DNA of 39,296 nucleotides from a virus. Its lineage: Duplodnaviria; Caudoviricetes. Positions 2,469 through 32,424 of this stretch are shown here, in pieces. Both the position numbers and the translations under genes were made by a program. Each line of letters opens with the position of its first letter. The stretch's first letter is position 1. Where the stretch lies: positions 1 through 39,296 of the IMG/VR virus record IMGVR_UViG_3300017914_001061; one strand, written 5' to 3'. Under the pieces are notes generated by a model, which was not told the DNA's origin, did no database searches, and saw only the letters and a list, made by a program, of their open reading frames with translations.

Positions 2469-3461
2469 TTACGCGCTGCATAAATCCGCGTCGCGGACAA
2501 CGTCAACCGCGCTCGGCGCGGTCTGTTGTACCTCGTTGCGGTCGTAGATAACGGGCGCGGCTTGTACCCCGAAATGATTCATACGGGCGGACACGTAGAA
2601 GAGAAGCGCTTGGCACGCGTCGTTCTTGGCAAGCAAGCCCCAAGGCGCGTCGTTGCTTGGGCGGTAGCGGGTAGCCCACTTGCCCTGCAATAGGTAGTTA
2701 CACATTGGGTTGTTGTAACCCGCGGTACGCTTTACGCTTGTCAACGAGCTTTCAACGATACCTTGACAGAATACCGTCCAATAGACGACTTTCGCAAAAT
2801 TTAGGGTACCCTGATGCGAGCGAATTTCTATTGTTTTATGCTTAGCATAAGCGTTTAAATTCAAGTGATGATAACGCTCGCTTGCGCATTGCATACGGCG
2901 CAATTCCTCGTCTAAATGCGGCGCAAATGTGCGGCAAAACCCGTTATTGCGGCGGCTTGGGGCAATAATTGACATAAAGTTATTTTCATTTTTAACCCAA
3001 TTATTGACGAGGTATCGCAAGCGCTTGTCGTTGTATTTTTTCGCGTCAAAATGCACGTGCAAACCGCAATTTCTGTCTACGCTGAATATTTCCTCGCGTT
3101 CCGCATTTTCAGCGCGGTACGCTTGCAAGTTTTCCTCGTTTATTTCGCGGATTACCTCGGTTAAAATGTACAACTGAAAAAACAACTTTTCAGCGCACAT
3201 TGGGGTTGATACAATCTCGCGGATTGGGTAGCGCCCGCTTGTACCGTCGCGCTTGATGTGCCAACCGTCGCCCTCGCCCGTAAACCCGCCGTTGTGCGAG
3301 TCAAGGTTGATGCTAACATTTAGCCCGCGCTCGTTCAATTTACGCGCAAGCATATGCGACTTTGAACGGTCGTTGTAATCGTGATATTCTAGCTCTAAAC
3401 CAATGGTTTTAAGCGGATTCATAGCCGTATTGGCTAGTAATTTTGAGTCTGTTTGATTCAT
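2469..3461 (-). CDS. Putative amidoligase (COOH-NH2 ligase, Amidoligase_2-like), likely start MNQTDS
   Basis: Motifs TIGLELEY, WHIKRDGT, EIVS, CGLHVHFD, RYHHLNL, TIEIRSHQGT; start set at ATG 3461 because the upstream extension runs through repeats. Confidence 0.85.
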   Translation of the reverse strand: MNQTDSKLLANTAMNPLKTIGLELEYHDYNDRSKSHMLARKLNERGLNVSINLDSHNGGFTGEGDGWHIKRDGTSGRYPIREIVSTPMCAEKLFFQLYILTEVIREINEENLQAYRAENAEREEIFSVDRNCGLHVHFDAKKYNDKRLRYLVNNWVKNENNFMSIIAPSRRNNGFCRTFAPHLDEELRRMQCASERYHHLNLNAYAKHKTIEIRSHQGTLNFAKVVYWTVFCQGIVESSLTSVKRTAGYNNPMCNYLLQGKWATRYRPSNDAPWGLLAKNDACQALLFYVSARMNHFGVQAAPVIYDRNEVQQTAPSAVDVVRDADLCSA

Positions 3462-3521
3462 TTTATTTTTTGATTTAATGCGCCGCGGAATTGCGACGTT
3501 GAAAGGATAGAAGCAAAAAAC

Positions 3522-3639
3522 GGGTACCCCGTCAACATTTAATTTCATTTTTTTCACGGGTACCCCAAACACGCGGCAAGCGGGGTACCCCAAAAAGCAA
3601 AAAGGGGGTACCCCCCAAACCCAAACCCAAACCCAAACC
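3522..3639. repeat. Four GGGTACCC palindromes followed by (CCCAAA)4
   Basis: Palindromes at 3522, 3558, 3583 and 3606; tandem CCCAAA at 3614-3637. Confidence 0.85.
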
Positions 3640-15224: not shown

Positions 15225-15460
15225 TGGGTGAACTCAAAAAGTGGAGAGACCAAAACTGGGTTCGCATCGGAACTGATGGAAAAATTAAAGGACCTTGCGG
15301 TACGTCAAAAAACAAGAAAAACCCCGATAGGTGCCTTCCAATGGCTAAAGCCAAGAGTTTATCGCAGTCTCAGCGTGCAGCAACTGCAAAAAAGAAAAAA
15401 CGAAGTAAAAAAACCGTAGTAAAAAATACACCTGCGGCAAAAGTAAGGAGTAAAAAGTGA
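15224..15460 (+). CDS. Basic hypothetical protein (LKKW...W...GPCG...RCLP)
   Basis: ORF track; motif recurrent in aquatic phages. Confidence 0.7.
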   Translation: MGELKKWRDQNWVRIGTDGKIKGPCGTSKNKKNPDRCLPMAKAKSLSQSQRAATAKKKKRSKKTVVKNTPAAKVRSKK

Positions 15461-15846
15461 GTACAGAATTATTAGCAATGTTAGCAGGAAGTGCCTCTGG
15501 GTTTATGTTTAAACTTATAGGTTCTTTGGTAGAAGCACAAAAGAGTGCAGTACAAGGATTAATAGAAAAACAAGGCGCAGCTGATGCAAGTCACGATGCA
15601 GCCGACAAACGTGGAGGAGCTTGGATACGTAGGTTTATTGTTACTGTAGTATTATTTGCAGTAGTGGTAGCACCATTTTTACTTGCTCATAGTCCAGAAG
15701 GTATTACAGTAGGAAGCGAAAGAAGCTTTTTGTTTTTCAATTATATTAAGTGGGAAACACTTGGCGGTTATGTTATACTACCAGAAATTAGACAAACTTT
15801 ACTTGCCATTGTAGGATTCTACTTTGGTTCATCTCAAATCAAATAA
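15457..15846 (+). CDS. Putative holin (3-TM type)
   Basis: Hydrophobic segments; C-terminal LLAIVGFYFGS; AAGGAG RBS with GTG start. Confidence 0.65.
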   Translation: MSTELLAMLAGSASGFMFKLIGSLVEAQKSAVQGLIEKQGAADASHDAADKRGGAWIRRFIVTVVLFAVVVAPFLLAHSPEGITVGSERSFLFFNYIKWETLGGYVILPEIRQTLLAIVGFYFGSSQIK

Positions 15847-16240: not shown

Positions 16241-18448
16241 ATGGCTCGCTACGATACATATGGTGCTGCTGATGACCAAATATTAGAGGATTCAGACACT
16301 AAATTTAGAGGTTTTAACGATAGGTCAAGACCCGATTCGTTAGAGCCTGGTATGTTGCAACAAGCTGAAAACGTTAGATTTGATTTAAGTGGAATAGCTA
16401 CAAAAAGAAAAAGTGTTGAAGTTTTATCTGCTCCCTTTACTACAGTAGGTGTAAGTCAATTAACATTACCATTTAACTTAGACCCATACCCTCCTGGAAC
16501 AAATTTTACACCTAGAGTAGGTAGTATATTAGGGGGTAACAGACTAGAATTAGAAGTTCAAGGCGGTGGAACACACGGAGGGTATGCGTTAGGTACTTAT
16601 GGTTTACAAGTCACAACAGACCCAAATAACTATTGGGACGATTTTGTTGTAGGTAATTATGAAATGACTTTAGGTACTGCAGGTACTGATGTAAATTTTA
16701 CATTTCCTAATAATGATTTTAGCTTTAGAAATTTAGGTGGTACTGTTTGGAAAGTAACTGGTCCAATATTATCTAACGCTCAAAATACTAGAGTAGTAGG
16801 TTCTAATAATTTTATTAATCCACAAACTGCGGAAGAATATATATTGTTAGCAGGAACAGCATTTGCTAAAGCTGTAAAGATTAGTGACGGTACAAGTACC
16901 ACTATTAATTATCCTGCAGGACACGTTCTTAATGAAGAGACTGTAACCGTCTTACAAGCATTTGATAGAGTTTATATATTTGAAGAAGGTCACGTACCTA
17001 TGTCTTGGGATATGGATTTTGCTAATGCTTTTGTTGATGAAGAAAGTGGTACATTTACACAACCTACTTTAAAGTCTGGTACTGCTGATATAACAGATGG
17101 CTTAGTAGAACTTACAGGTATAACTAATACTGGGTTTGGTGCATTGGTAACTGGTGATGAAATTGTAATTATTGACGCGCATAATACTGGATTAACAAAT
17201 AATGATACTTATCAAGTAGCAGAAAGCACAACTACAAGTATATCTTTTTATGCTGAAGTAGAAGATGTTAATAATGATTCATTGGATATTATAGGTAGAG
17301 TATCTGGAGGAGCAGGATTCATACACGCTCCTGCGCCTGGAGATGCGATAGTTCATCGCAATAGATTAGTTGTACCATATAAATATACAATAAACGCTAG
17401 TGATGATAGTTATACTGAAAGAGATGTAATAGATGAATTACTTATTTCTGCTCCATTTAATTCAGAAAAATTTGACACTACATATGGAACATTTGTTACT
17501 GCAGGTGGACAAAGCGATAGTTTTGTTACTGCGTTTTCTTTTGCCGAAGATAAGCTAATTATGTTTAACAGAAAAAGCATTTCTGTAGTAACTGGAGTTG
17601 ATAGCTTTAACTTTCAAGATGCAAAAGTACAAAGCCTTACAAAAGAAATAGGTTGTGTAGCAAAAGATACTATAGTTCAAGTAGGTAATCAAATATTATT
17701 CTTGTCTGATAGTGGTGTATATGGTGTTAGCTTCCAAGATTTATACAATTTAAGAGGTAATGATGTTCCTTTAAGTGCAGCGATAGATGGTACAATACAA
17801 AACATTGATAAGGATAATTGGCATAAATCTAGTGCCGTATACTTTGATAATAGATACTATATAGCAGTTCCTATGCCTGCAGTTAATAACAGTAATAGTA
17901 GAATTATTATTTATAACTTTTTAAATAAAGCTTGGGAAAGTGTTGATAATGTCAGTAATACTGGCTTTCACATAGATAAATTAATAGTTGCAGGAAGTGG
18001 AACTAAACGTGGAGTTTATGCAGTTAATTCTTTAGGTGGAGTGCATAAATTAGAAGCTTCTGACTTTGACAAACAAGATTCAACTATAGTATCAATCGGA
18101 GGTTCTGCAGAGCTTACTAATATAAAGTCAACATTGAGAACAAGACAATATAACTTAGGTACTGTAGATAGAAAAAAATGGAATAATTACGAAGTTGTTT
18201 TAACAAACGAAGGTCACGCAAGCACTCTCGTAAGTGTAACGGTAAATACAGAAAATAAAGATGGGGCTAGCGACACCTCAGAATTTACGCCTCCTAATTA
18301 CGAGGGGGTTTCCTACCGTGCTAGAATAGGAAATATAAGAGCTTATGGCGCAGATGCAACTATCCGAGAGGATACTGGGCGATTCTCTTTACACACTTTT
18401 AAAATTGCGGGAGCTTTAACCTTCCGTTCACAAAACGAAGCAAGATAA
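16241..18448 (+). CDS. Tail nozzle / P22 gp10-like stabilisation protein (beta-propeller)
   Basis: 735 aa; IGCVAKDTIVQVGNQILFLSDSGVY, PLS..ID, YFDNRYYIA, IYNFLNKAW. Confidence 0.75.
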   Translation: MARYDTYGAADDQILEDSDTKFRGFNDRSRPDSLEPGMLQQAENVRFDLSGIATKRKSVEVLSAPFTTVGVSQLTLPFNLDPYPPGTNFTPRVGSILGGNRLELEVQGGGTHGGYALGTYGLQVTTDPNNYWDDFVVGNYEMTLGTAGTDVNFTFPNNDFSFRNLGGTVWKVTGPILSNAQNTRVVGSNNFINPQTAEEYILLAGTAFAKAVKISDGTSTTINYPAGHVLNEETVTVLQAFDRVYIFEEGHVPMSWDMDFANAFVDEESGTFTQPTLKSGTADITDGLVELTGITNTGFGALVTGDEIVIIDAHNTGLTNNDTYQVAESTTTSISFYAEVEDVNNDSLDIIGRVSGGAGFIHAPAPGDAIVHRNRLVVPYKYTINASDDSYTERDVIDELLISAPFNSEKFDTTYGTFVTAGGQSDSFVTAFSFAEDKLIMFNRKSISVVTGVDSFNFQDAKVQSLTKEIGCVAKDTIVQVGNQILFLSDSGVYGVSFQDLYNLRGNDVPLSAAIDGTIQNIDKDNWHKSSAVYFDNRYYIAVPMPAVNNSNSRIIIYNFLNKAWESVDNVSNTGFHIDKLIVAGSGTKRGVYAVNSLGGVHKLEASDFDKQDSTIVSIGGSAELTNIKSTLRTRQYNLGTVDRKKWNNYEVVLTNEGHASTLVSVTVNTENKDGASDTSEFTPPNYEGVSYRARIGNIRAYGADATIREDTGRFSLHTFKIAGALTFRSQNEAR

Positions 18449-18449
18449 T

Positions 18450-19184
18450 ATGGCAAAATTTACAGGTAAAAACAATTTCGCAAATGGTGATGTTATTACG
18501 GCTACTAGCCTTAATGAAATTACTGACAATTTACTTTTAGCAAGTGATTCGTTTAGTAATACATTTACCGTAAATTCTGGAGTAGTTACAATTACTGATG
18601 GTGCTATTACTAATAGTTTAGTAGAAACATCTGTTGATGCAAGTACAGGACTAGCAGGAGATAAAATAAGAGATGATGCTATTGTAACTGCTAAGTTACC
18701 AGATTCTACAGGAACTACAGACGGTGTTACATATGCAAAAATGCAATATGTTACAGATGCAGGTAAATTGCTAGGAAGAACTACATCGGGTTCTGGTGTA
18801 GTGGAAGAGGTAGATATTGATACTAATTTATCTGTTGTAAGTGCCAATGATGATACAATACCAAGTGCAAAAGCAGTTAAGGCTTATGTAGATTCTGCAC
18901 CTAATCACGTTCCATCTACAGTAGATAATACTACAAGATATACGCAATTACCTAATGGACTAATTATGAAATTTGGTTCATTTGCTGCAACAAGTACGCA
19001 AACAACTATAAACTTTGATAGTACAGTAGCTTTTACTACATTAATATCTGTAGTTGTAACTGCAGTAGATAGCGATAGTACACCACCATATCCAGTTTCA
19101 ATAAACTCAGCAAGCACTACACAAGTAATTGTAGACCATAGTGCAGATGTAAATAGTCTTTATTATCAAGCAATAGGAGAATAA
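18450..19184 (+). CDS. Tail fibre protein
   Basis: ITATSLN N-terminus, LLGRTTSGSGVVEE, PSAKAVKAYVD, C-terminal QLPNGLIMKFG...YQAIG. Confidence 0.7.
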   Translation: MAKFTGKNNFANGDVITATSLNEITDNLLLASDSFSNTFTVNSGVVTITDGAITNSLVETSVDASTGLAGDKIRDDAIVTAKLPDSTGTTDGVTYAKMQYVTDAGKLLGRTTSGSGVVEEVDIDTNLSVVSANDDTIPSAKAVKAYVDSAPNHVPSTVDNTTRYTQLPNGLIMKFGSFAATSTQTTINFDSTVAFTTLISVVVTAVDSDSTPPYPVSINSASTTQVIVDHSADVNSLYYQAIGE

Positions 19185-19185
19185 A

Positions 19186-22100
19186 ATGGGGTATTCAGCA
19201 GGACCATTAGACGTTTCTAATTACGATTGGTTTTGGGATACATATAATCCAAGCGTGGATTATACTCCTATCGTAAACGATATTAATAATATGGGGCTTG
19301 GCTCAGATGGGCAAATGATGCCCGAAGAGTCTGGGTTCTTAATGGATTTTGATGAGCTAAACGGAATGTTTGGACTTGTTGACTTAGACCTTATGACTGA
19401 TGGCTTTAGTGCCGCAGATAGAGATTATTTGACCTCTATGGGTCTTGATGGCTATGAAATGGTTAATCGAGCTTTTACTGATATAGATGTAGGAGGTGGA
19501 AACTTGATGGCTGTTAATGAATTGCTAGACCAAGGAGTTGCTCTTACTAATCAAATGATTGAAAATGCAAATGCTTCCTTTGCTAGAAATAAAATAATAG
19601 CAGATATACAAGCATCTGATATTGCAAAATTAGAAGCAGCTGCAGAAGAATTTTATTATCAAACACAAAAAAGAAATTCAGATTCAGCTAGTAATCAAAT
19701 TTCAAAATTTAGAGGATTTTTAACATCTCAATATGAGATAGACCCAGAAACAGGTCAAATGGTAGGTGTTGGAACTTATCACGATAAAGAAGCAGTAGGT
19801 CAAGCTGCGCTAGATAGTGCCGCTTATGATTTACAAAAAGCAGTATATGATTTTATGGCGAGTCCTGGCTATGATAATAGGTTTCACGAAGTAGATACAA
19901 GACAGCAAATATTATCGGACGATGGTGAAACAATGATTGATAATCCCAATTATATGCAATCAGAGCCAAGCCAAGGATTAATAGATGATTATGTTTATGC
20001 TCCTTATATGCCCGATGAAGATGCACAAACCATAGTAGAAAGAGATTTGCTTAATATACCTGGGTTTACTGGAGAAGGCGAAATCCTAGATAGTGGAGAA
20101 AGAAATACAGCAACAGGAAAACTTATTGCAGTTGCCTTAGATTTAGCAGGATTAGGTAGCATTGGAACAAAACTTTATTTAACGCAAAGTACTTGGAATA
20201 TGGCTGTTAATGCAGTCGAAAGAGGAATAAATAAAATTTTAGGTACAGGTATAGATTTGCCTAATATTAATTTGCACGAATTTGCTGCTACTTTATTAAA
20301 TGAAAAGTTTGTAGATAAAGATGGTAAACCTATATTAGAGGGTATAGCTAACAAGGCAGAATGGTTAATACCTTTTTATGACCCTACTTTATCTGTTAAT
20401 TTAGCAGCACTTGGTGGAAACGAGCTAGGAAAGTTTGACCCTACTGGAGAAAACTTTTTTGAAAATATAGCAGATGCTTTACTTGAAGGACCTATACTAG
20501 ATGCCGTACAAGAAGCTTCTGATGCAGGAAAATTTAAAGACATTGAAACTGATAGAGGTCAAGGCATTATGGGATTCCTTGGCAATATAAAAGCTTTTGT
20601 ACAAAGTGGTGGAGTTGCTATTCAAAAAGTTTTAGGTCCAGGTCTTTCTCAAGCAATAGTAGATTTTGCTTTTTTTGATGGATTGCCTGTAGGACAAATA
20701 TTAAACTCAATAGGCGTAGCTTTAGGTCCACAATCATTGGAAGATTGGAAAAGGTACTTAGAGGACAAAGGAATAGACCCTAATAATGTAGAAGAGAAGG
20801 ATATATCTTATTACCGTGCATTGGTGGACGAATATCTTACTGACCCTACTACAAAATCTTCTGGGCTTACATCTTTACAAGAAGTAACGAATGGTATTGA
20901 TGATGGAGGTGTAGCAGCTAGGTATCTAAACACAATGAATAATTGGTTCAGAGATACCTATGGTGTAAACTTAGATACAATAGACCCTGTAGATGCGGCT
21001 GCATTAATGCTTAATACTATAGAAGACCAAAGAAAATATGAGCAAGATGCATATATGAGTCCTGCTCAATTACAAACGGCTTATGATAATGAAAGTATTT
21101 TTAGAAGTATACAAGGTCTTGAACCAATATCATTTGAACAATTTAAATCCGATTATGAAGCTTCTGTTCAAAGTGATGTGTTCAAAGTAGACATAGGTAA
21201 TGGATTTTCTTTTGATGCTGAAACAGTTAAAAACATTACAGATGAAATTGAAATAGGAGATTTTCAAAGTAGCGAAGATAAATCAAATAGATTATTAGAA
21301 CACGCAGATTATATTTTAAGTGATGGTAAACAAGGAGAGTCGCTACAAAATTTTTATGATTCAGATATACAACTTACCTCTGAAGCGGCTATGGCTAGTA
21401 CACGAACAGTTGATGAAGATGTATATATAATACCAGACGTAGAAGCTAGAGGTTATCAATTTCAATATGTTACTGCACCCGATGGAAGCGATGCAGCATA
21501 TGACCCTTTAACAGGCGTAACTTATGCATTGCAAGAAGATAGATTAATAAATAATCCTGGAATTAAAGACGATAGGTATGATTTTCCTTCTTTAACTTAC
21601 TCAGATTTATTAACATCTGATAAAGATTTAAATCCTAAAAGATTAAAAGAAATAGCTAAACAAGGTCGTATAGAGTACGGAGAGTTAAAAAAATACGTAG
21701 AAGAAAATCCTTATGTTTATTTAGGTAAAAGCAAAGAGACGCACAGGCAAGATATAGTGCGCGGTATGATAGGTAGTAATTATGGTTGGAATGGAAGAGT
21801 ATCTGTTTATACATTAGCTGATTTAAGTGCAGAAGGAGTAGAAGATTTTTATAGCAAATATAATATTAACCCAAGCACTCTTTCTTCTGTTACAGGCAGA
21901 GACTCAGAATTGCCTTTTGATTATGATAATATGCCACAGCATACATTTACTGGCGATGAATTAAGAAAACTTGGGGTAGATATATTTAGCGAAGATGCTT
22001 TAAATATTGCGGGCTATATGCATTACAAGGGAAGAAAACCAAATAATGGTCCTCAATATTATGAATTTCAAAGCGCAAGTCCTATTACCTTAGAGGAATA

Positions 22101-25100
22101 TAATAATCCTGTTCCTAAAGCATTAAGAGCTTTTGAATCAGAATTGGGAAATTATTATTTAAGAAAGTACACAGGAGACAATACAGAATTAATCGAGGAA
22201 ATAGAATATAATGCTGCGTATCACGATTTCGTAAATAGTATAGATGATAGTGTTGATTGGAGTGAATACGGTTATTATGACTTAGAGGGACATATGATAA
22301 AAGAAGGTCTTGTAGATGCTGATTTAGGTGTATCTATAGGAAACACAACTTATTTAGAAGATTTTCAAGTAGAAAGCGACTACAAGCCAAGTGATTATTC
22401 ATTATTTACTGCTTCTGTTTCTGTTCCAGGTCAGCGAGACCAAACAATGCTTTTTGTAGAAGATTTAGAAACTGGAATTGTCGAGTTTTATGATAACGAT
22501 AGAATGAATTTAGCTACGGGTAAATATGAATTTGATGCTCCAACTGTTGATGGTTTAGAAAATGTTAGAGTTAGGATTCCTGGAACAAATAATTTTTCTA
22601 TTGGAAATAGAGCAGACATAGGAGAAGTTTTAAAACGCCTATACGCTTCTGGTCAAATTAGTGCTGACGAAGTAACTGCCGTAGATTTGGCATTATTTTC
22701 AAGAGATTATAATAATTCATTTACTCATACAGTAGTAAATACGCAAGGTGGTCAATATAGTTACGGTATGGACAATTATGTAGACCCAAATGAAATTTAT
22801 TATGCGGGTTATCAAGGTGACTTTGAAATTAATCCAGAAACTGGCGATTTTGTTTTTATGGATACCTATGTTTTTGATAATCCTTCTATAGTAGGAGAAG
22901 AAGAAGGATTAGGGCAAACAGGGGCAGGTTCTTTTTATAACTTACCAGATTTTAATGTAATTGGTTTTGATAACTTTGAAGATTTAAGTCAAGGTTATCA
23001 AGATAGATTAGACTTTATTGATGCAACTAGCTTTGATTACAATACAAAAGATTTCTTAAAACAAAATGCTTATGAATTGTATAAGTCAAGAGAAGCTTTT
23101 TTAGAGTTAGATGAGGAATCACAAGCATTAATCCTGCAAGCACAAGCAGAAGCTACAAGTGACTTTATAGACTTAGGTGTATTTACAGTAACTGCTAATA
23201 ATATAACAGATTTAGATGCTGAATTGCAGACTAGATTAAATCAAATTACTGCAGCCGACTTATCTGAAGGACAAGAGCAATACGAAATTGATTTAGCAAA
23301 TGCTATATACAATGCAAAGAAAACAGAGATAAATACTCTATTCTTAAAAAACAATTCTATAAACGCTTTAACGCAAAGAAAAGCCTCATTAGAAGCGAAT
23401 AAAGAAGAGAACGAAGAAAAAATATTAGGGCTAGAAGCTACTATAGAGAAGATTAGGTCTTACGAAATACCAGAGTTCAATGTAACTGCATATATGAATG
23501 CAGAAGACCCAAGTGCCTATATGCAAAACTTTGTTAATGAAGTTAGGAAAGGCACTACAGAAGAGTTTGGAAACGTGTTATCTATAGAGAATGCAGACCA
23601 AATATTATCTAATGTAGCCGCTTTAGCACAATCAGAAACAGATTTGCAAATTGTAACAGCCGAAAAAGATAAATATTACGAGGACTACACAAAAACATTA
23701 GAAGATTACAATAAGGCTATTACTGAAAGAGATAATGCTAGACTACAAAGAAATGCGAATCAATTAAGAATAGACGATTTAAAAACAAAATTATATGTAG
23801 AGCTAGATAACTTTGAGGTTACCGCTACTGACATACAGGGCGCGGAAAGTCAGTTAAATGATTTCAATGCAGAGATAGACAGAATGGTTAGTGACGGAGA
23901 AATTACGTCAGAGCAAGGAGACCTAGAAAAAGCATTAGCAGTTAATACATTTGACGTATACAAAGCTACACAAGATATTTCTGCATTGCAAACATCTACC
24001 GATACAACAATAGCAGGATTGCGAGCAGATTTAAAGACTGCACAAGATTCAGCTGCTTCATTTGAAGCTGAAGCTGATGAATTTGAAAGTAAGTATAATA
24101 CTACCAAAGCAGATTTAGAAGCTAATCAATCTTATACATTACCAGATTTTAATGTATGGCGCGCTATGAGCGATATGGGTTATGTATGGAATGAAGAAAA
24201 TTCTGTATTTGATAACCCCCAAGGGTTGGAATATCAAGTAGTTCAAGATGAGTGGATAGCAAATTACGAGCAACAGTTAATAGATGACGGCATTCTTACA
24301 CAGGAACAAATAACAAATGTATTAGCAGATTTAAGAGGAGCTATAGGGGCAAGACAAAGTAGAGCTTATTGGAAAAACACAACTTTAGATACTCAATCAG
24401 AGCTTAGTGATGCAGAATCTCGTATTGGGGAATTACAAACATTTTCATTACCAGAATTTAGTATTACGGCTACCACTTTAGACGGCTTAAATGATTATCT
24501 AGATGAGTATTTGACTTATGTAAATACTGCCGAAGAAAATGAATCTATAAGTGCAGAACAAGCTATAAACTTTAGAAATATTATTAGTAGTCTTAAACGA
24601 AATGGTGCTGATATTTTTGATTTAGAGGCAGCAAACAAAACTAAACAAGATGAAATAGATAATCTTACAGCAACAAATACAGGACTAAGTGCTACCATTG
24701 GAGAAAAAGATGAAGAAATATTAGACTTAACAGGAACTATATCTGTAATTGGTAGTGGCTTTGACGTTACTTTATATGATGATATTAGTGACCTAGATGC
24801 AGGTCTTGCATCATACATACAAGGCATTAATGATTCTGACTTAGATGAAGAGATGAAAGAATCTCAAATAGCATTTGCCGAAAGTATGGCAGCTATGCGT
24901 AGAGAGAATCTATTTGTTCCTACTTACGAAGCACCAGACTTTAATGTAGTAGCCGAAGGAGACCTTACTGGATTGAATCAATCCTACGCTGAAGCTATAT
25001 TTACATTAGATAGCTTCTTAGACAACGAGTACATTACTCAAGAAGAATACGATGCAAATGTTGCCGACTTAAATACTGCATACAATACAAGGAAAGATGA

Positions 25101-27240
25101 AATTGTACCTACTTATACATTGCCAGAGTTTACTGTATCTGAGCTAGATGCAGAAGGTGGATTTACTAATCTTGATGCAGAGAAAGAAGGATTTTTAGAT
25201 GACCTACAAAGTTTCTTAGATAATGATTATATTACTAGAGAAGAGTACGATGCTTTTGAAGCGCAAATAGAATCTGCGTACGATACTAAGAAACGAGATA
25301 TTACCCCTGTATATGAAGCACCCGACTTTACAGTATATGAGCAGTTACAGCCTGGAGAAACTTTCGAGGATATAGATACGGCATACAATACTGCTTACGA
25401 TGAATTAACATTAAATGCTCAACTAGGATATATAAGTGCATCAGACTATATTACTCAATTAAACGACCTACAAACATCTTATGAAGATGCGAGAAAAGGT
25501 ATAGCTCCTGCGTATGAGTTACCAGACTTTAGCGTATATGGACAGATTGCAGAAGGTGATGATACTACAGAGATAGATACTGCGTACCAAAACGAGCTAA
25601 CAAGGTTAGAGGAATACAAAGATAGTGGTTACATTAGCCTAAGTGAGTACTACGATTTCTTAGGACAACTAGAAACTGAGTACACTACAAGAAGAAAAGG
25701 TGTATTACCTACTTATACAATGCCAGACTTTAGTGTTACACCTGCTTCATCACTAGCAGAGTTAGCAGAAATGGAGAAAGCTGCACTAGATAGGTTTGAA
25801 ATGTTTAGTGAATCTGGATATTTCCCAGAGGATTTTAATATTCTTACAGAGCAAGAAAATTTACAAGCTTTGATAGATGCAGAAAGAGCTAGGATACAAG
25901 GCACTTATACATTACCAGAATTTAAGGTTGAAGATACTAAAGGTCTATTAAGGCAAAGTGATATAGAAGACTTATTTAGCGAATACGAAGCAAGATTACA
26001 AGAAGATGTAATGTCTGAAATGCTTGGTATAAACGATTTCTTTAGCGCAATGCAAGATGCTAAAACTACATTTGATGTAGAGTTCGCAAAAAGAAAGCCA
26101 ATACAACCTAGAGAAGGAGACTATGCAATTATTCCAGACCCTATCAATGAAGATGATGCAGACCAACCCTCAACAGGAGACTTTTTAGATTATGTTGACG
26201 ATGGAAATTTCCCCGACCAATATGGTACTATAGGGGGTATTGATACAAGTGGTATACTAACAGGAAACTATATGGCAAAACTAGACCCAGCTTATCAGTT
26301 AGCCGAGATATTACTCGGACAAGACGCAGCTAAACAAATGTATCCTACGGGTAAAAGCCGTGGATTAGCAGATGAAGAGTTCCAAGATATTGTAAATCAA
26401 TTTATGCTCGGACAAGCCGAGGACGCGTTTGATATGCAGTCTGGACTTTCTGGCAAGATGCAAGATTTAGCTACTGAACAACGTAGGTTGCAAAGGAAAG
26501 CAGACTTAGATTTAATGGCTGAGTTTGGCGACCCTTACAGAAAGCAACTCGAAGAACTGTATCCAGAGCAAGCTGCTGCATTGAAACAACAACGTGAAAT
26601 AGCCGATATAGCGGCAGAGCGTGCAAAGGGAGACTTATCTCCTAGAGAGCAATCACAGGTAGAGCAACAGGCTTACTTATTTGGTGCAGGTAGAGGCAGA
26701 GAATTTGACCCTATGACGTTGTATAAACAACTAGGAGAAGAAGTTGGAGTCAGAGAAGGTAGAGAAACACAAGCTACTAATCAACTTACTGCATTGATGA
26801 ATATGGAGCGTGGATTGTATGGAGACCTACCTAGCGTAATCGGCGCACAAAGCCCATTCATTGAAGGCGTAGGAGATATTACTACTCCATTCAACATTGG
26901 TGGTATTATGGACTTAGGTTCTGTAGACTATGCTAACCAACAAAAACTAAAAGAAGTTAATATGGCTATTGCTCAACTCGATAGAGAGTATCAAACTGCA
27001 GTAGCATTGCAACAACCTAGCAAAGCTCAATCAACATTAGTTAAGTTAAATGAATACAAGGCTATGGCAGATGCTATTAGTTCTGGCATTAGTACAGCTA
27101 AACAAGCGTTTGGAACTTTAGGAAGCATTATTGGTGGAATAGGTAGCATTTTTGGTGGTGGTCAAATACAACCAGATATTGATGTATCCACAGATAAAGA
27201 TAAAGGATATTATCGGATAAATAGATATTTAGGATTTTAA
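19186..27240 (+). CDS. Giant acidic virion/ejection protein (2684 aa) with internal repeats
   Basis: Position after the tail genes; D/E-rich; about 13 YxLP(D/E)FxV repeats; Gly-rich amphipathic C-terminus. Confidence 0.7.
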   Translation: MGYSAGPLDVSNYDWFWDTYNPSVDYTPIVNDINNMGLGSDGQMMPEESGFLMDFDELNGMFGLVDLDLMTDGFSAADRDYLTSMGLDGYEMVNRAFTDIDVGGGNLMAVNELLDQGVALTNQMIENANASFARNKIIADIQASDIAKLEAAAEEFYYQTQKRNSDSASNQISKFRGFLTSQYEIDPETGQMVGVGTYHDKEAVGQAALDSAAYDLQKAVYDFMASPGYDNRFHEVDTRQQILSDDGETMIDNPNYMQSEPSQGLIDDYVYAPYMPDEDAQTIVERDLLNIPGFTGEGEILDSGERNTATGKLIAVALDLAGLGSIGTKLYLTQSTWNMAVNAVERGINKILGTGIDLPNINLHEFAATLLNEKFVDKDGKPILEGIANKAEWLIPFYDPTLSVNLAALGGNELGKFDPTGENFFENIADALLEGPILDAVQEASDAGKFKDIETDRGQGIMGFLGNIKAFVQSGGVAIQKVLGPGLSQAIVDFAFFDGLPVGQILNSIGVALGPQSLEDWKRYLEDKGIDPNNVEEKDISYYRALVDEYLTDPTTKSSGLTSLQEVTNGIDDGGVAARYLNTMNNWFRDTYGVNLDTIDPVDAAALMLNTIEDQRKYEQDAYMSPAQLQTAYDNESIFRSIQGLEPISFEQFKSDYEASVQSDVFKVDIGNGFSFDAETVKNITDEIEIGDFQSSEDKSNRLLEHADYILSDGKQGESLQNFYDSDIQLTSEAAMASTRTVDEDVYIIPDVEARGYQFQYVTAPDGSDAAYDPLTGVTYALQEDRLINNPGIKDDRYDFPSLTYSDLLTSDKDLNPKRLKEIAKQGRIEYGELKKYVEENPYVYLGKSKETHRQDIVRGMIGSNYGWNGRVSVYTLADLSAEGVEDFYSKYNINPSTLSSVTGRDSELPFDYDNMPQHTFTGDELRKLGVDIFSEDALNIAGYMHYKGRKPNNGPQYYEFQSASPITLEEYNNPVPKALRAFESELGNYYLRKYTGDNTELIEEIEYNAAYHDFVNSIDDSVDWSEYGYYDLEGHMIKEGLVDADLGVSIGNTTYLEDFQVESDYKPSDYSLFTASVSVPGQRDQTMLFVEDLETGIVEFYDNDRMNLATGKYEFDAPTVDGLENVRVRIPGTNNFSIGNRADIGEVLKRLYASGQISADEVTAVDLALFSRDYNNSFTHTVVNTQGGQYSYGMDNYVDPNEIYYAGYQGDFEINPETGDFVFMDTYVFDNPSIVGEEEGLGQTGAGSFYNLPDFNVIGFDNFEDLSQGYQDRLDFIDATSFDYNTKDFLKQNAYELYKSREAFLELDEESQALILQAQAEATSDFIDLGVFTVTANNITDLDAELQTRLNQITAADLSEGQEQYEIDLANAIYNAKKTEINTLFLKNNSINALTQRKASLEANKEENEEKILGLEATIEKIRSYEIPEFNVTAYMNAEDPSAYMQNFVNEVRKGTTEEFGNVLSIENADQILSNVAALAQSETDLQIVTAEKDKYYEDYTKTLEDYNKAITERDNARLQRNANQLRIDDLKTKLYVELDNFEVTATDIQGAESQLNDFNAEIDRMVSDGEITSEQGDLEKALAVNTFDVYKATQDISALQTSTDTTIAGLRADLKTAQDSAASFEAEADEFESKYNTTKADLEANQSYTLPDFNVWRAMSDMGYVWNEENSVFDNPQGLEYQVVQDEWIANYEQQLIDDGILTQEQITNVLADLRGAIGARQSRAYWKNTTLDTQSELSDAESRIGELQTFSLPEFSITATTLDGLNDYLDEYLTYVNTAEENESISAEQAINFRNIISSLKRNGADIFDLEAANKTKQDEIDNLTATNTGLSATIGEKDEEILDLTGTISVIGSGFDVTLYDDISDLDAGLASYIQGINDSDLDEEMKESQIAFAESMAAMRRENLFVPTYEAPDFNVVAEGDLTGLNQSYAEAIFTLDSFLDNEYITQEEYDANVADLNTAYNTRKDEIVPTYTLPEFTVSELDAEGGFTNLDAEKEGFLDDLQSFLDNDYITREEYDAFEAQIESAYDTKKRDITPVYEAPDFTVYEQLQPGETFEDIDTAYNTAYDELTLNAQLGYISASDYITQLNDLQTSYEDARKGIAPAYELPDFSVYGQIAEGDDTTEIDTAYQNELTRLEEYKDSGYISLSEYYDFLGQLETEYTTRRKGVLPTYTMPDFSVTPASSLAELAEMEKAALDRFEMFSESGYFPEDFNILTEQENLQALIDAERARIQGTYTLPEFKVEDTKGLLRQSDIEDLFSEYEARLQEDVMSEMLGINDFFSAMQDAKTTFDVEFAKRKPIQPREGDYAIIPDPINEDDADQPSTGDFLDYVDDGNFPDQYGTIGGIDTSGILTGNYMAKLDPAYQLAEILLGQDAAKQMYPTGKSRGLADEEFQDIVNQFMLGQAEDAFDMQSGLSGKMQDLATEQRRLQRKADLDLMAEFGDPYRKQLEELYPEQAAALKQQREIADIAAERAKGDLSPREQSQVEQQAYLFGAGRGREFDPMTLYKQLGEEVGVREGRETQATNQLTALMNMERGLYGDLPSVIGAQSPFIEGVGDITTPFNIGGIMDLGSVDYANQQKLKEVNMAIAQLDREYQTAVALQQPSKAQSTLVKLNEYKAMADAISSGISTAKQAFGTLGSIIGGIGSIFGGGQIQPDIDVSTDKDKGYYRINRYLGF

Positions 27241-27243
27241 ACT

Positions 27244-28470
27244 ATGATTAGCGTAACACAAGGACCTAGTATCAATGCAAGCCTAGCCTCTTTAGACTAC
27301 GATAAGAAGTTTGAAGCAGGCAGAGAAGGTATACGTAAAGTAGCAGAAGCGCAGGAAGCAAAGAATCAAGAGATTAAAGACGCTTTTAAGGATATGACTG
27401 ACAACTTTCAGAAGGCTCAGATTACTGGGTCTAAGGTTGCGGCAGCTATAGAGAATAACCCAGAGTTATTTGCGGGTCTTGAAGATAGTAATAGCTTAAC
27501 AGCTAAATCATATAAGAAATTTTTGAATGGGGACTATAGTCCGCAGGTTGTAAACAACCTAAATGCGTATATTGATTCTGCTCAGACGCAGATAACAAAC
27601 GCTAATGCTATACAGGAACAAAAAGATATGCAAACTGCAGCATCAGCACTTACTGATATTATTAAGTTGCAGTTTCCAGAAGGTATGTCAGATGATGATA
27701 TTGATTCTGTAACGCAATCAGATTTAACCAGAACAATGTTAAATTATATAAGCACTAAGGATTTAACTACAGGTGCGCAGTCATTGATTTTAGCAGGCAT
27801 ACAGAAGTACGGACAGAATTTATCGACTACTGATGAATTTGCCTACGATGCAAAAATAGAAAGTAATATGAAAGCGTTTGACGCTTTCTCAGATGCTTAT
27901 TCGAAGGGCGATACAGCAGCAGCAATGCGAGCTATATCAACAAGTCCTTTATATAGTGAATATATAAATGTAAAAGACGTTACAGGAGAAATTATACGTC
28001 AACGTAGTGCAGATGAAATCGCAGCTATACTTGGAATAAGTCAACCTAAGCCAGATGCACCCGAAGATGATGACGAAGATTATAGCGATGATTCTGGAAT
28101 AGATGCAGCAGTAGAAGCTTTAGGCGAAGATGATTTAAACTCTGAATCATTAACGCGATATACTAATTTTAAAAGCAAGGATTTAAATGATTCCATAGAA
28201 ACTGCAGCAGAGGTAGATGTAGCTATGGATATGAAGAAGAGCCTCAAGATATTATTAAAAGAGTTAAAGCAGGCTGAAGATAAATTAGCAGACAAAGGCT
28301 TTAGAAATGTACAAGGTGTTAGTTTAGATAAATCATACTATCAAAACCAAATTACAAAAAAGAAAAGTGCTATATTAGATATTATAGAACAACTAGATAA
28401 GATGCTCAAAGTAGAATCAAATGTAGCAAACAAAAGCACCGCACAATTAGAGAGCGAAGTATTTAAATAA
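27244..28470 (+). CDS. Putative internal virion/ejection protein
   Basis: 408 aa, helical, between two large virion genes. Confidence 0.55.
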   Translation: MISVTQGPSINASLASLDYDKKFEAGREGIRKVAEAQEAKNQEIKDAFKDMTDNFQKAQITGSKVAAAIENNPELFAGLEDSNSLTAKSYKKFLNGDYSPQVVNNLNAYIDSAQTQITNANAIQEQKDMQTAASALTDIIKLQFPEGMSDDDIDSVTQSDLTRTMLNYISTKDLTTGAQSLILAGIQKYGQNLSTTDEFAYDAKIESNMKAFDAFSDAYSKGDTAAAMRAISTSPLYSEYINVKDVTGEIIRQRSADEIAAILGISQPKPDAPEDDDEDYSDDSGIDAAVEALGEDDLNSESLTRYTNFKSKDLNDSIETAAEVDVAMDMKKSLKILLKELKQAEDKLADKGFRNVQGVSLDKSYYQNQITKKKSAILDIIEQLDKMLKVESNVANKSTAQLESEVFK

Positions 28471-28476
28471 TATTCT

Positions 28477-31400
28477 ATGAGTAAAACAGCCAGAGAAGTT
28501 CTTGAATGGCTCGCTACAAATAAAGAGTTAGAACAATCTGACCCACAAAGATACGAAGCTGCTAAAGAACTATACCGAAGAAAGAAAGCGGAGGAAGGTG
28601 GAGGTACTGCACTTACCAATAAACCTATTGAAAAAAGGGGTACCCCTATTTCTGAACCTACAGGACCTGGAGCAGGTAAAATAGTACAAGGTCTTGGTAC
28701 CGAAGTAGCAGTTAGTACAGCAGGTAAATATGCAGGTGCTGCTGCAGGTGGAGTTTTTGGACCCATTGGTATTTTACTTGGATATACCGCAGGAGCTATT
28801 GGTTCTGGTATAGCAGGTAGTCTTGCTGCGCAAAAGATAGAAGGTAGAGACGAGATTAGTTGGGGTCGTGCAATATCTGCAGGTTTAATTAATCTAATAC
28901 CTACACCAGGTGCGCAGTCTATTAAAGTTCTTGGTAAGAGCGCAGGTAAGGGATTGTCTAAAATGGCAGAGCAAGGCATCAAGTATGGTGCATTAGAAGG
29001 TGCGGCTACAGGTGTAGTAGAAGCTCAAGCTACATCTATCATAGACAAGGGCGAGCTTGCAGGTGCAAAAGAAACTGCATTGTATGCAGGTATAGGAGCA
29101 GGCTTTGGTGGTACACTAGGTGCAGTAGGTAAAGGACTAGCTAAAAAGCTAAAAGGTAAAACTCCTGCTGAAATAGAAAACACTATATACACAGATTCCA
29201 AAGGAAGACTGGGTACATTTGAATTGATGACTAACTCTGGAGCGGACAACAATAGATTGAAGCCATCTCCTACATTTGACTACGAGTTTGAAAAAAGTAG
29301 ACAAGCTAACATCAGAGAAGAATCTACAAGCGCCATTGGTGTATCAAGTACAGGAATATCAGAGTCTAGTTATGACCCAAATAAAATAGGTCTTGTCGCT
29401 AAGATATACCAAAAGCTTCCTGCAACTGCGCGAAGATGGATTGCGCAAGTTACCCCGTCTATCGTTAGTAGACAAATAGCTGACATAGGTATAGACTACA
29501 GAAACTTAATCAAGACTGGAGAAGCTATTGGAGGTAGAGTAGCTCAAGCAGTAGCTAGAGAAACAGAGCTAGACCCAAGGACTGCGCCTGCTTTTGAAAA
29601 GTTTTTTGATGGAGGAGAGATAGACCCTATCTTAGTAGAGAAAGGATTGCTTGGCGTATTGTCAGAATGGAGAGATTTTGTTGATAGTCAGCAACGTGTA
29701 CTTTCAAGATTGCTTGGAGATGATGCTATCAAAGGGCTAGATGAAGAAAGCCAAATGCTTCTTATGGGTAAGATAAATGCTTCTATTCGGGACAAGGATT
29801 ATCTAGCTCAAGAGTTTGAAATCTATACTAATGAAAATTTTATAGTAGACCCTAAGTTAAAACAAAAAGCTATTGACGAAATAGAAAGACAGTTAGACGC
29901 AGGAGATGATATAGCAATAGGCGTAGAAGTATTTGACCCAGTTTCTGGAGAGTTTACTTATCAGAAAACAACAAGTTTATTTAGTGACCTTGACGAAGCT
30001 AAGATTGATTTAGGGGTACCCCTAAGAAACAGAATAGATTACATTGATAAAGGAAAGCCATTAGTAAAAGGTAGTCCTAAATCTATGGACGACCAAGGTG
30101 TAAGATTTTCTAACAGGGAAAAAGCCGCAGCCTTGGTACAAGAAATCATTGATAATTCTGCAGCGACTAGAAAAGCCAAAGCAGCAGGAAGTGGTAAACA
30201 ACCCGTCAATGCGCCTATACGTGCAAGAGAATTAGATGAAAGCACTAATGCAGCGCTTATGAGAATGATGGGTGTAGTCAGAGACCCAGGAGAGCGCGCA
30301 CGTGGTACAGTATCAAGACTAACTAGATTAGTTGCACGTGCATCTGCTGATAAGAGAATGACTGAAATGCTAGAGGGTATGAATCTAGCCACTAGAAATC
30401 CAGACAAGCCTGGAGTCATTGCGCTAGACTTGCGCGGTGGTAAGAGTGGATTGTATACAAGTCCAGAAGTAAACATTGCAGTCAATCAGTTGTACGCTAG
30501 TAACTATATAGAAAACTCTGTTAATGGATTCATTGATGGTTTGCAAACTACACTAGATTCTGGAGTAGGTTTATCTAAAGCAGTAAAAGTTCTAGGTAAC
30601 TTACCTTCATATATGGTTCAGTTCTATGGCAATATGGCTACGATTGCTCAACTTGCTATGGCAAATCCTATGGAAGTTCCTGCGTTATGGAATGGTTTCC
30701 GTGTAGCTATGTCAGACATTGATATGTTTGCAAGTAATCAAAAGTTATCTAAAGAAATACTTTCAGAAATTAAAGATGCAGAAAGATATGGCATCAAGGG
30801 TGGTAATATATTTGCTTCTGATATTAGAAGTAACTTAGAGAATGCAGTTGGTCCTGCGCAAAAAATAATACAGCCGTTTGCTGAAGTATACCAAGTTCCA
30901 GATACAGCATTTAGATATTACGGTTGGAAGCTTATGCAGCTACAACTAAAAAAGGTGTACCCAGATTTAGCAGACCCTAAACGCGCAGAAGATTTAAAGA
31001 ACGTTGCTGCTAAGTTATTGAATGACGTATACCAAAACTACGACAAGGTAAATGCAGCCGCTCGTTTAACAACTAAGTACGGTCTTACTCCGCAGTTTGC
31101 TACGTTTACTATGGAGCTATTGAGAAATCAATACAACCAAGGTAGACAGATTAGAGATTTATTAACTGGCAAGCTTGGTCAAAATCTAGGAATTAACTTA
31201 GGGCAAGTAGACAGAGCGGCATCTATGAGAATAGGTGCGCATAGAGCAGCTTGGACTGCTGCTACGCTCGGCGGTGCAACTGCATATTTTTCTGGATACG
31301 AAAAAGCTAATAATGTAACTGAAGAAAAAAGAGCTAAGTTATTAGAATCATACGTAGAAGACTACGCTACGAACTCTCCATTGATTATGACAATGGACGA

Positions 31401-32424
31401 AGATAACACTAAATTTAATTATCTTAATTCATCTTACTTAGTTCCGCAGCGTATGATTGCTCAAGCATTCCAGGCAGGTATGGACGGTACAGATGAAACA
31501 TCATTGATGAGACTTGTAAGACAAGAGTTCGTTGGTGAAGGTGCATTTTTCTATGTAGGTGTAGGACAAGCTTTGCTCAATAAAGATATAGAATCTGGAG
31601 AAAAGATTAGTACAAATCCAAATGACTTTCAAAAGTTCCAAGAGATTATGGAGTTTGCTATCGAGGATATGTTTAAGCCTGGACAAGCAAGAGAGCTAGA
31701 CAAATTTATCAAGGCAGGTAAGCCAGGTTCAAGATTTACATTAGACCAAGTGTACGCTCGTCAGTTAGGTTGGCGTGTAAATCCTAGAGATATGGTAGAG
31801 ACTGGAGAAAGAAAAGCACGTAAAGGATACCAAGATGTAAGAGCGGTCAAATCTGATTGGGGCGCAATGATAAATCATAGACTAGAAGAGTTACGTTCAT
31901 TACCAGACCAAGGCGAATCACAATACCAAGAAGCTAATAGGCAGTACACAGACTTGATGCAGGTTCAGAGAATGCACCTAAATAACTTTACTTACTTTCA
32001 CGGTGCGGATAAAGCTATAGAAATGCTGAAGAACGCAGGTGTAAGCTCAGAAGAATTAGCATACCTACAAGCAGGTAAGATTCCTAGCTTGCCAAGAACA
32101 CCAAGGATTACTGCTGAATCTATATTTGATGGTTTAGATTTAGACTTAACTCTGAATACAGAAGCCAACAATGAAAAGATAATGCAAGCAATTCGTTCTG
32201 TTGATAATCCTTTCTTGAAAAAGAAAATGTTGAATTACTACAAGAAGAGTAGAATGAAGGCACGTAAGGGATTAACAAACTTTGAGGCAACAATAGATGC
32301 GCTTTCATCTGATACTCAGATAAGAATACTAAGAGATTTATACGAAGGTAACACGGCTTACTTTAAAGAGTTATACGGTAAGAAGGTTATAACTAAAGAA
32401 GCATACTATATGCTCACTAGATAA
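28477..32424 (+). CDS. Large DNA-transfer/ejection protein (1315 aa)
   Basis: Gly/Ala-zipper hydrophobic N-terminal region, helical body, last gene of the late operon. Confidence 0.65.
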   Translation: MSKTAREVLEWLATNKELEQSDPQRYEAAKELYRRKKAEEGGGTALTNKPIEKRGTPISEPTGPGAGKIVQGLGTEVAVSTAGKYAGAAAGGVFGPIGILLGYTAGAIGSGIAGSLAAQKIEGRDEISWGRAISAGLINLIPTPGAQSIKVLGKSAGKGLSKMAEQGIKYGALEGAATGVVEAQATSIIDKGELAGAKETALYAGIGAGFGGTLGAVGKGLAKKLKGKTPAEIENTIYTDSKGRLGTFELMTNSGADNNRLKPSPTFDYEFEKSRQANIREESTSAIGVSSTGISESSYDPNKIGLVAKIYQKLPATARRWIAQVTPSIVSRQIADIGIDYRNLIKTGEAIGGRVAQAVARETELDPRTAPAFEKFFDGGEIDPILVEKGLLGVLSEWRDFVDSQQRVLSRLLGDDAIKGLDEESQMLLMGKINASIRDKDYLAQEFEIYTNENFIVDPKLKQKAIDEIERQLDAGDDIAIGVEVFDPVSGEFTYQKTTSLFSDLDEAKIDLGVPLRNRIDYIDKGKPLVKGSPKSMDDQGVRFSNREKAAALVQEIIDNSAATRKAKAAGSGKQPVNAPIRARELDESTNAALMRMMGVVRDPGERARGTVSRLTRLVARASADKRMTEMLEGMNLATRNPDKPGVIALDLRGGKSGLYTSPEVNIAVNQLYASNYIENSVNGFIDGLQTTLDSGVGLSKAVKVLGNLPSYMVQFYGNMATIAQLAMANPMEVPALWNGFRVAMSDIDMFASNQKLSKEILSEIKDAERYGIKGGNIFASDIRSNLENAVGPAQKIIQPFAEVYQVPDTAFRYYGWKLMQLQLKKVYPDLADPKRAEDLKNVAAKLLNDVYQNYDKVNAAARLTTKYGLTPQFATFTMELLRNQYNQGRQIRDLLTGKLGQNLGINLGQVDRAASMRIGAHRAAWTAATLGGATAYFSGYEKANNVTEEKRAKLLESYVEDYATNSPLIMTMDEDNTKFNYLNSSYLVPQRMIAQAFQAGMDGTDETSLMRLVRQEFVGEGAFFYVGVGQALLNKDIESGEKISTNPNDFQKFQEIMEFAIEDMFKPGQARELDKFIKAGKPGSRFTLDQVYARQLGWRVNPRDMVETGERKARKGYQDVRAVKSDWGAMINHRLEELRSLPDQGESQYQEANRQYTDLMQVQRMHLNNFTYFHGADKAIEMLKNAGVSSEELAYLQAGKIPSLPRTPRITAESIFDGLDLDLTLNTEANNEKIMQAIRSVDNPFLKKKMLNYYKKSRMKARKGLTNFEATIDALSSDTQIRILRDLYEGNTAYFKELYGKKVITKEAYYMLTR

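Follow-up and report, generated by a model that had tools for sequence, protein, structure and literature searches.

Why would a giant phage protein carry, along its own chain, a dozen copies of a short peptide resembling the box that the TonB-ExbBD motor grips in nutrient transporters? The question arises from virus record IMGVR_UViG_3300017914_001061 (Caudoviricetes), which is rated 100% complete and which we analysed over its whole 39,296 nucleotides (hereafter, the window). Its gene at 19186..27240 (plus strand) encodes an acidic protein of 2684 amino acids (aa; 299 kDa, isoelectric point (pI) 4.1), the first product of what is likely a three-gene ejection cassette. A sequence-only reading of this DNA had proposed 13 periodic TonB-box-like motifs and a TonB-powered ejection ratchet. 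Sequence comparison shows that the feature is real and conserved, and it is likely an array of TonB-box mimics on an ejection protein. That the motifs are TonB handles for the stepwise import of the giant protein itself is the reading we favour, with a chance of being right that falls a little short of even.

The motif has the consensus Y-x-L-P-D-F-x-V-T-A and occurs in 12 clear copies from residue 1251 onward. The pattern [YFVIL]x[LIVAM][PDGS][DEVN]FxV matched the protein 11 times, against a mean of 0.03 and a maximum of 2 in 2000 shuffles; the twelfth copy, FSLPEFSITA (24442), lies outside these matches. With a profile of 52 family motifs, taken partly from full-length kin and circular in its self-scores, the 12 sites scored 19–30 bits and the next window 4.2. 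In 14 other proteins of the phage, none of 6583 windows exceeded 8 bits.

Six motifs (22936, 23167, 23461, 23797, 24133 and 24442) form a loose array at 22936..24924 on the plus strand, 77–112 aa apart, whose copies retain V-T-A. Six more (24925, 25114, 25312, 25513, 25714 and 25906) form a tight array at 24925..25935 on the same strand, 63–67 aa apart, and a homologous helical hairpin follows five of these six. The successive spacings are 77, 98, 112, 112, 103 and 161 aa, then 63, 66, 67, 67 and 64 aa; the stretch of 161 aa spans the site GSGFDVT at about 24745 (plus strand), within the loose array. All the peptides listed in the sequence-only reading are found where it had placed them, and 12 of its 13 motifs stand as clear copies. 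The thirteenth, GSGFDVT, scores below -1.3 bits and is regarded as degenerate because it is not among the 24 best profile windows.

The array is shared by relatives, and the variation in repeat number that had been suggested as a check is indeed present. The 11 full-length relatives (2518–3385 aa) carry 12–20 motif sites, with whole modules gained or lost. In 10 of them a tight array of 62–67 aa adjoins the C-terminal core; in the remaining one the spacing is 59–72 aa. Among three distant kin, identity at the motif positions is 61%, as against 33% elsewhere in the protein. An exact-motif scan of viral contigs returned eight loci. One of them, L236, is a distant relative according to gene order and a core match; its protein of 1341 aa has three motifs, which lie in acidic or Pro-rich linkers, likely unstructured and free of the hairpin. 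Two others represent one protein at the matching cassette position, with a single motif at residue 26 of the frame. The number of motifs rises as the protein lengthens: none in proteins of about 300 aa, three at 1341 aa and 12–20 at 2500–3400 aa. Degenerate F-D-P versions precede some modules, and in the relative P0035 the motif is present in N-terminal regions without the tight-array hairpin. When protein libraries were searched with motif profiles, the matches were confined to family members or consisted of a single family member and an unrelated repeat protein; these searches are uninformative because the profile retained 42 columns.

Do these motifs resemble real TonB boxes? The comparison covered 34 proteins bearing a Plug domain, four from a metagenome-assembled genome (MAG) labelled as Rickettsiales and 30 loci, one per genome, drawn from 273 matches in 41 genomes of the phylum of that MAG; their boxes are probably not those of the host lineage. 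The phage-only profile ranked a window 8–24 residues before Plug first in 16 of the 34 transporters (about 650 windows each), where 0.9 would be expected by chance, and 14 of these 16 top-ranked boxes sat at an offset of -15 or -16. When the columns of the profile were permuted, none of 2000 permutations reached 16 (mean 2.2). With the last three columns held fixed, 6 of 1000 did (mean 4.3), which indicates that the first seven columns add signal. The reverse profile was built from 28 distinct boxes, chosen among the 34 for their position and for ending in a V/I-T/S-A-like sequence, a selection that favours V-T-A ends. It ranked phage sites 1328, 1753, 1538, 1426 and 2177 as the first five of 2675 windows and put 11 of the 12 motifs in the top 100; the four best all belong to the loose array. 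Additionally, transporter L186, from a metagenome, has YNLPEFMVTA, an exact phage form, directly before its Plug domain. The resemblance claimed earlier is therefore upheld, in register in both profile directions and by this exact-form copy.

In placement, the phage motif differs from a known box. It is not a single N-terminal copy before Plug or at the head of a bacteriocin, as 12 internal copies begin at residue 1251. This placement lowers the case for a canonical TonB box and leaves untouched the possibility that the motif works like one. Transporters of Opitutales may have a box of the form L-x-x-F-x-V. A scan of viral contigs for an Opitutae-type box form found none. The supplements of PMC8319329, as far as they were available, yielded no TonB-box sequences.

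The setting of the motif was modelled with AlphaFold for residues 1899–2265, from an alignment of eight sequences. The tight array was predicted with a predicted local distance difference test (pLDDT) score of 87 and a predicted template-modelling (pTM) score of 0.59. Each unit consists of an extended-coil motif and a helical hairpin, without strands. The helical segments expected between the motifs are thus seen in the tight-array spacers, and the short beta-strand expected for the motif itself is replaced by extended coil. A profile of 19 tight-array hairpins found five units in the giant protein but recognised nothing in the loose array or at the L236 motifs, so the motif outlives any one structural setting. 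That it is the element common to tight array, loose array and L236 linkers speaks for the favoured reading. A buried core element of a folded repeat had been named as the outcome that would count against TonB handles, and the tight-array model, in which the motif is ordered, goes part of the way towards it; yet the motif does not form the core of a beta-sheet, and copies are present where there is no hairpin.

What kind of protein carries the array? Gene layout fits the gp14-gp15-gp16 ejection operon of podoviruses, and this assignment, which comes from gene position and indirect homology, is likely; the giant protein would then likely be the internal virion protein that is ejected first. The second cassette gene (27244..28470, plus strand, 408 aa) is gp15-like by position only. 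The third (28477..32424, plus strand, 1315 aa) is homologous to a protein of the related locus L222 (E-value 7e-9), which in turn matches the internal virion protein family phrog_342 (E-value 2e-8). The N-terminal part of the giant protein, about 1250 aa (19186..22935, plus strand), belongs to no known family and shares 29% identity with the first cassette gene of L220 along 278 aa; weak motif remnants lie at about 21424 and 22348, where some kin have full motifs.

At the other end, a long-helix core (26266..27033, plus strand; modelled with pLDDT 64) is homologous to first cassette proteins of related phages that are about 300 aa long and free of motifs. The C-terminal 250 aa or so match that of L221 (E-value 3e-11, eight sequences, null2 off), and the core was also aligned with L225 and L236. 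The short proteins without the motif are those of L221 and, judged by eye, L225. Because the core matches such proteins, the motif array is an add-on, and so would a TonB pull be in this lineage. In freshwater relatives the first cassette protein has Gln/Ala-rich repeats and weak similarity to the core. After long QAGQFGA-type repeats, L216 (1309-4248), L223 (894-3737) and L224 (1277-4510) have a C-terminal domain that looks Hint/intein-like by eye, which is absent from the close kin L217 and L222. The cassette is mosaic: the giant protein is 94% identical to that of Phage C75C1 and the third gene only 34–46%, whereas the third gene is 92% identical to that of L004 (window 27244-32424 compared with L004 and L011).

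Searches with the giant protein found no PHROG and no Pfam family above the cut-off (SHOCT appeared only below the threshold), no Plug domain in the Pfam scan, no toxin domain and no DNA-binding feature. The Atlas gave nothing, Foldseek returned no match for repeat or core, a PDB sequence search gave 0 matches, and the VIA fold search gave generic helical matches only (Z up to 7.4). A first cassette protein of 299 kDa is out of the ordinary, and the space inside the capsid would restrict how many copies could be packaged.

How might such an array work? TonB dislodges about 50–60 aa of the plug (PMC12927319). The period of 63–67 aa is close to this stroke, which is suggestive only. In the favoured reading, TonB-ExbBD would grip the twelve motifs one after another and pull the 299-kDa chain into the periplasm during entry. 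Partial unfolding on exit would free a box, TonB would pair with it and extract about one module (63–67 aa), and the next box would then be exposed, while refolded hairpins would hinder back-sliding. The C-terminal core would come last and serve as a piece of the conduit. The pull would act on the protein and not on DNA; pulling of genome DNA was set aside because the protein has a pI of 4.1 and no DNA-binding feature was found, and because kin have motif-free cassettes. In its full form, as a ratchet in which a chain of masked boxes, spaced about one motor stroke apart, lets a nutrient-uptake motor haul the first ejection protein across the envelope, thereby establishing the genome conduit, the proposal is possible and distinctly tentative. 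Box likeness, cassette position, repeat variation and a one-gene hint of a Verrucomicrobia host agree with the ratchet of the sequence-only reading; the ordered motif of the tight-array model speaks partly against it.

A number of results weigh against TonB handles. Beyond the selection noted for the 28 boxes, the box is picked in 3 of the 34 transporters when only the first seven profile columns are used and in 21 when only the last three are used, ties counted, so that most of the positional signal stems from the V-T-A end. The best-conserved motif residues in the three distant kin are P (94%) and F (97%), followed by V (70%), and not T (44%) and A (43%). F is never found at column 6 of the 28 transporter boxes, which have I, V or L there instead, and with the transporter profile the ranks of all but one of the six tight-array motifs are only 13–169. 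Tight-array motifs are ordered (pLDDT 77–95, and 81–95 for motifs 2–5) beside their hairpins, and the model suggests that the motif packs on the hairpin. Occurrences elsewhere tell in the same direction. In an exact-motif metagenome scan, only one of 119 loci was a transporter (L186), about 31 were alpha-2-macroglobulins and about 33 a single unrelated protein, with Pfam run on 11 loci and the rest classified by eye. A second viral scan turned up 27 loci with no more than a single site each, and 14 of them were a tape-measure protein of an Enterococcus phage; Enterococcus, a Gram-positive host, is not known to have a TonB system. Nor is an array required, as one box suffices for bacteriocin chains ten times longer than the plug segment (PMC12927319). 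Finally, the host assignment comes from one gene.

It is clear from these scans that one motif copy means little; the case lies in number, conservation and register. The bacterial alpha-2-macroglobulins (L098 and about 30 metagenome loci) open their MG3 domain with YELPEFSVTA, the same letters as the phage consensus. L154 (3-1220, minus strand) encodes a bacterial protein without a Pfam match in which YELPEFTVTA is followed directly by a Pro/Ser/Gly linker and then a C-terminal domain; this protein may be exported and carry its box internally. L235 (3-7142, minus strand) and L239 share a TAG-recoded giant protein (more than 2380 aa), crAss-like by appearance, with one FNLPDFRVTA, possibly by chance, and two upstream genes without the motif. 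Because single copies occur in unrelated proteins, the single-copy loci L235 and L240 were not counted as support.

Three other explanations deserve consideration. The motifs could bind TonB as a multivalent tether or decoy, with no stepwise pull: they would hold the ejection conduit in place at TonB-ExbBD sites, or sequester TonB so that transporters shut and later phages or bacteriocins are blocked. The box-likeness tests fit this idea equally well. The irregular spacing across kin (57–500 aa) and the scattering of the L236 motifs in linkers agree with it, and designed TonB-box peptides aimed at TonB are on record (PMC9841981). We consider it unlikely, given the regular array next to the core in nearly all full-length kin and the fact that a small early protein would do as a decoy, which makes fusion to a virion core needless.

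Also improbable, in our judgement, is that the motif is a structural clasp whose Y, L, P, F and V pack against the helices downstream of it or join neighbouring subunits of an extensible helical conduit, in which case its likeness to TonB boxes would be convergence of an amphipathic extended segment. The AlphaFold model supports it: motifs 2–5 are confidently placed and the last tight-array motif, with the downstream part cut off, is not (pLDDT 55–60), so docking on the hairpin is likely. The conservation of P and F, the identical letters that open MG3 and the F-D-P versions before some modules also fit a clasp. Against it stand the motifs without the tight-array hairpin (loose array, P0035 N-terminal regions and L236 acidic/Pro-rich linkers), the exact -15 register in transporters and the V-T-A kept in loose-array copies. 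Weakest is a linear docking signal for another strand-binding envelope protein (TolA, a TonB paralogue, BAM POTRA domains or a periplasmic chaperone), which would suit the aromatics at columns 1 and 6, a departure from the sampled boxes, and the filamentous phage pIII that engages the TolQ-TolR motor (PMC10424213), but is quite unlikely, as the TonB-box site is the only positional match found.

As for the rest of the genome, family matches identify a terminase, a major head protein, a head-closure/nozzle-like gene and a fibre-like gene upstream of the cassette; the last two (16241..19184, plus strand; phrog_578 and PF21882) lie directly 5′ of the giant gene. No tail tube, sheath or tape-measure family matched among the 30 window proteins scanned, from which we infer a short tail. 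Away from the cassette, a fusion of glutamine-amidotransferase-like and gamma-glutamyl cyclotransferase domains stands beside an amidoligase (645-1628 and 2469-3593, minus strand).

The host is probably a member of Verrucomicrobia, as suggested by one gene. A hydrophobic protein of 129 aa (15457..15846, plus strand) is 52% identical to a protein of Verrucomicrobia phage P8625 and matches three of 50,697 phage records, namely C75C1 and two P8625 records (host Puniceicoccales); its gene is the only open reading frame that P8625 and the window share. C75C1 is the nearest named record (head protein 89%); its host field is empty and no paper on it was found. Searches with the helicase turned up no close cellular relative; its near-full-length matches in 61 genomes of the MAG's phylum were at 26–33%. 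L006, a contig of this phage family (head protein 67%), lies inside the Rickettsiales-labelled MAG. It is probably misbinned because its guanine-cytosine content is 44% as against 29–32% in four other loci of that MAG, and a Rickettsiales host was rejected. No TonB-dependent transporter is annotated on the Opitutaceae TAV5 plasmid.

How does the array compare with known systems? In the literature searched, mostly outside subscription papers and available in part, we found no precedent for a phage protein that carries a TonB box of its own or several in tandem. The box before Plug (PF07715) shares the in-register form x-x-L-(P/D/G)-(E/D)-hydrophobic-x-V-T-A; the phage protein, in contrast, lacks Plug and barrel, has 12 internal copies, and differs from the 28 boxes from the phylum of the MAG in its F at column 6 and its Y at column 1. 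The box form might help to assign hosts to uncultured phages. TonB-dependent bacteriocins (pyocin S2, KlebC, colicins B, 5 and 10) are likewise foreign proteins pulled by TonB-ExbBD through their own box, but they have one N-terminal box rather than 12–20 along the chain, and no toxin domain was detected in the phage protein. The PyoS2 box lies in a hairpin that detaches (PMC12927319), the channels used by colicins 5 and 10 have no box (PMC11658791), and colicin B can drag a 15-base single-stranded DNA tag (PMC8546555). How TonB moves polypeptides far longer than 50–60 residues is described as an open puzzle in a review from 2026 (PMC12927319), whose author finds it perplexing that one box suffices for such long chains; a natural series of boxes 63–67 aa apart would be a ready substrate for studying stroke length and repeated pulls.

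Like the podovirus ejection proteins (T7 gp14/gp15/gp16, P22 gp7/gp20/gp16), the cassette comprises three adjacent, helical, poorly conserved genes after the tail genes, the third linked to a family of internal virion proteins. Searches with the giant protein yielded no match, in sequence or in fold, among solved ejection proteins, and its size, about 300 kDa, differs from the 20 kDa or so of its counterparts. T7 gp14, first in its operon, is ejected first and goes to the outer membrane (PMC8954989); the available part of that review does not mention TonB. Comparable in principle are phages T1 and phi80 and the filamentous pIII-Tol system, in which entry is coupled to an envelope motor driven by the proton motive force. 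As far as the available texts go, fd pIII contacts TolQ-TolR (PMC10424213), uses Tol and has no array described, and T1 needs TonB and energy at the step of its receptor FhuA (PMC11658791), where TonB acts on the receptor and not on a phage-borne box. If the favoured reading is true, short-tailed phages would have a further way of powering entry with the proton motive force of the host, through a handle that the phage itself brings and not through a receptor.
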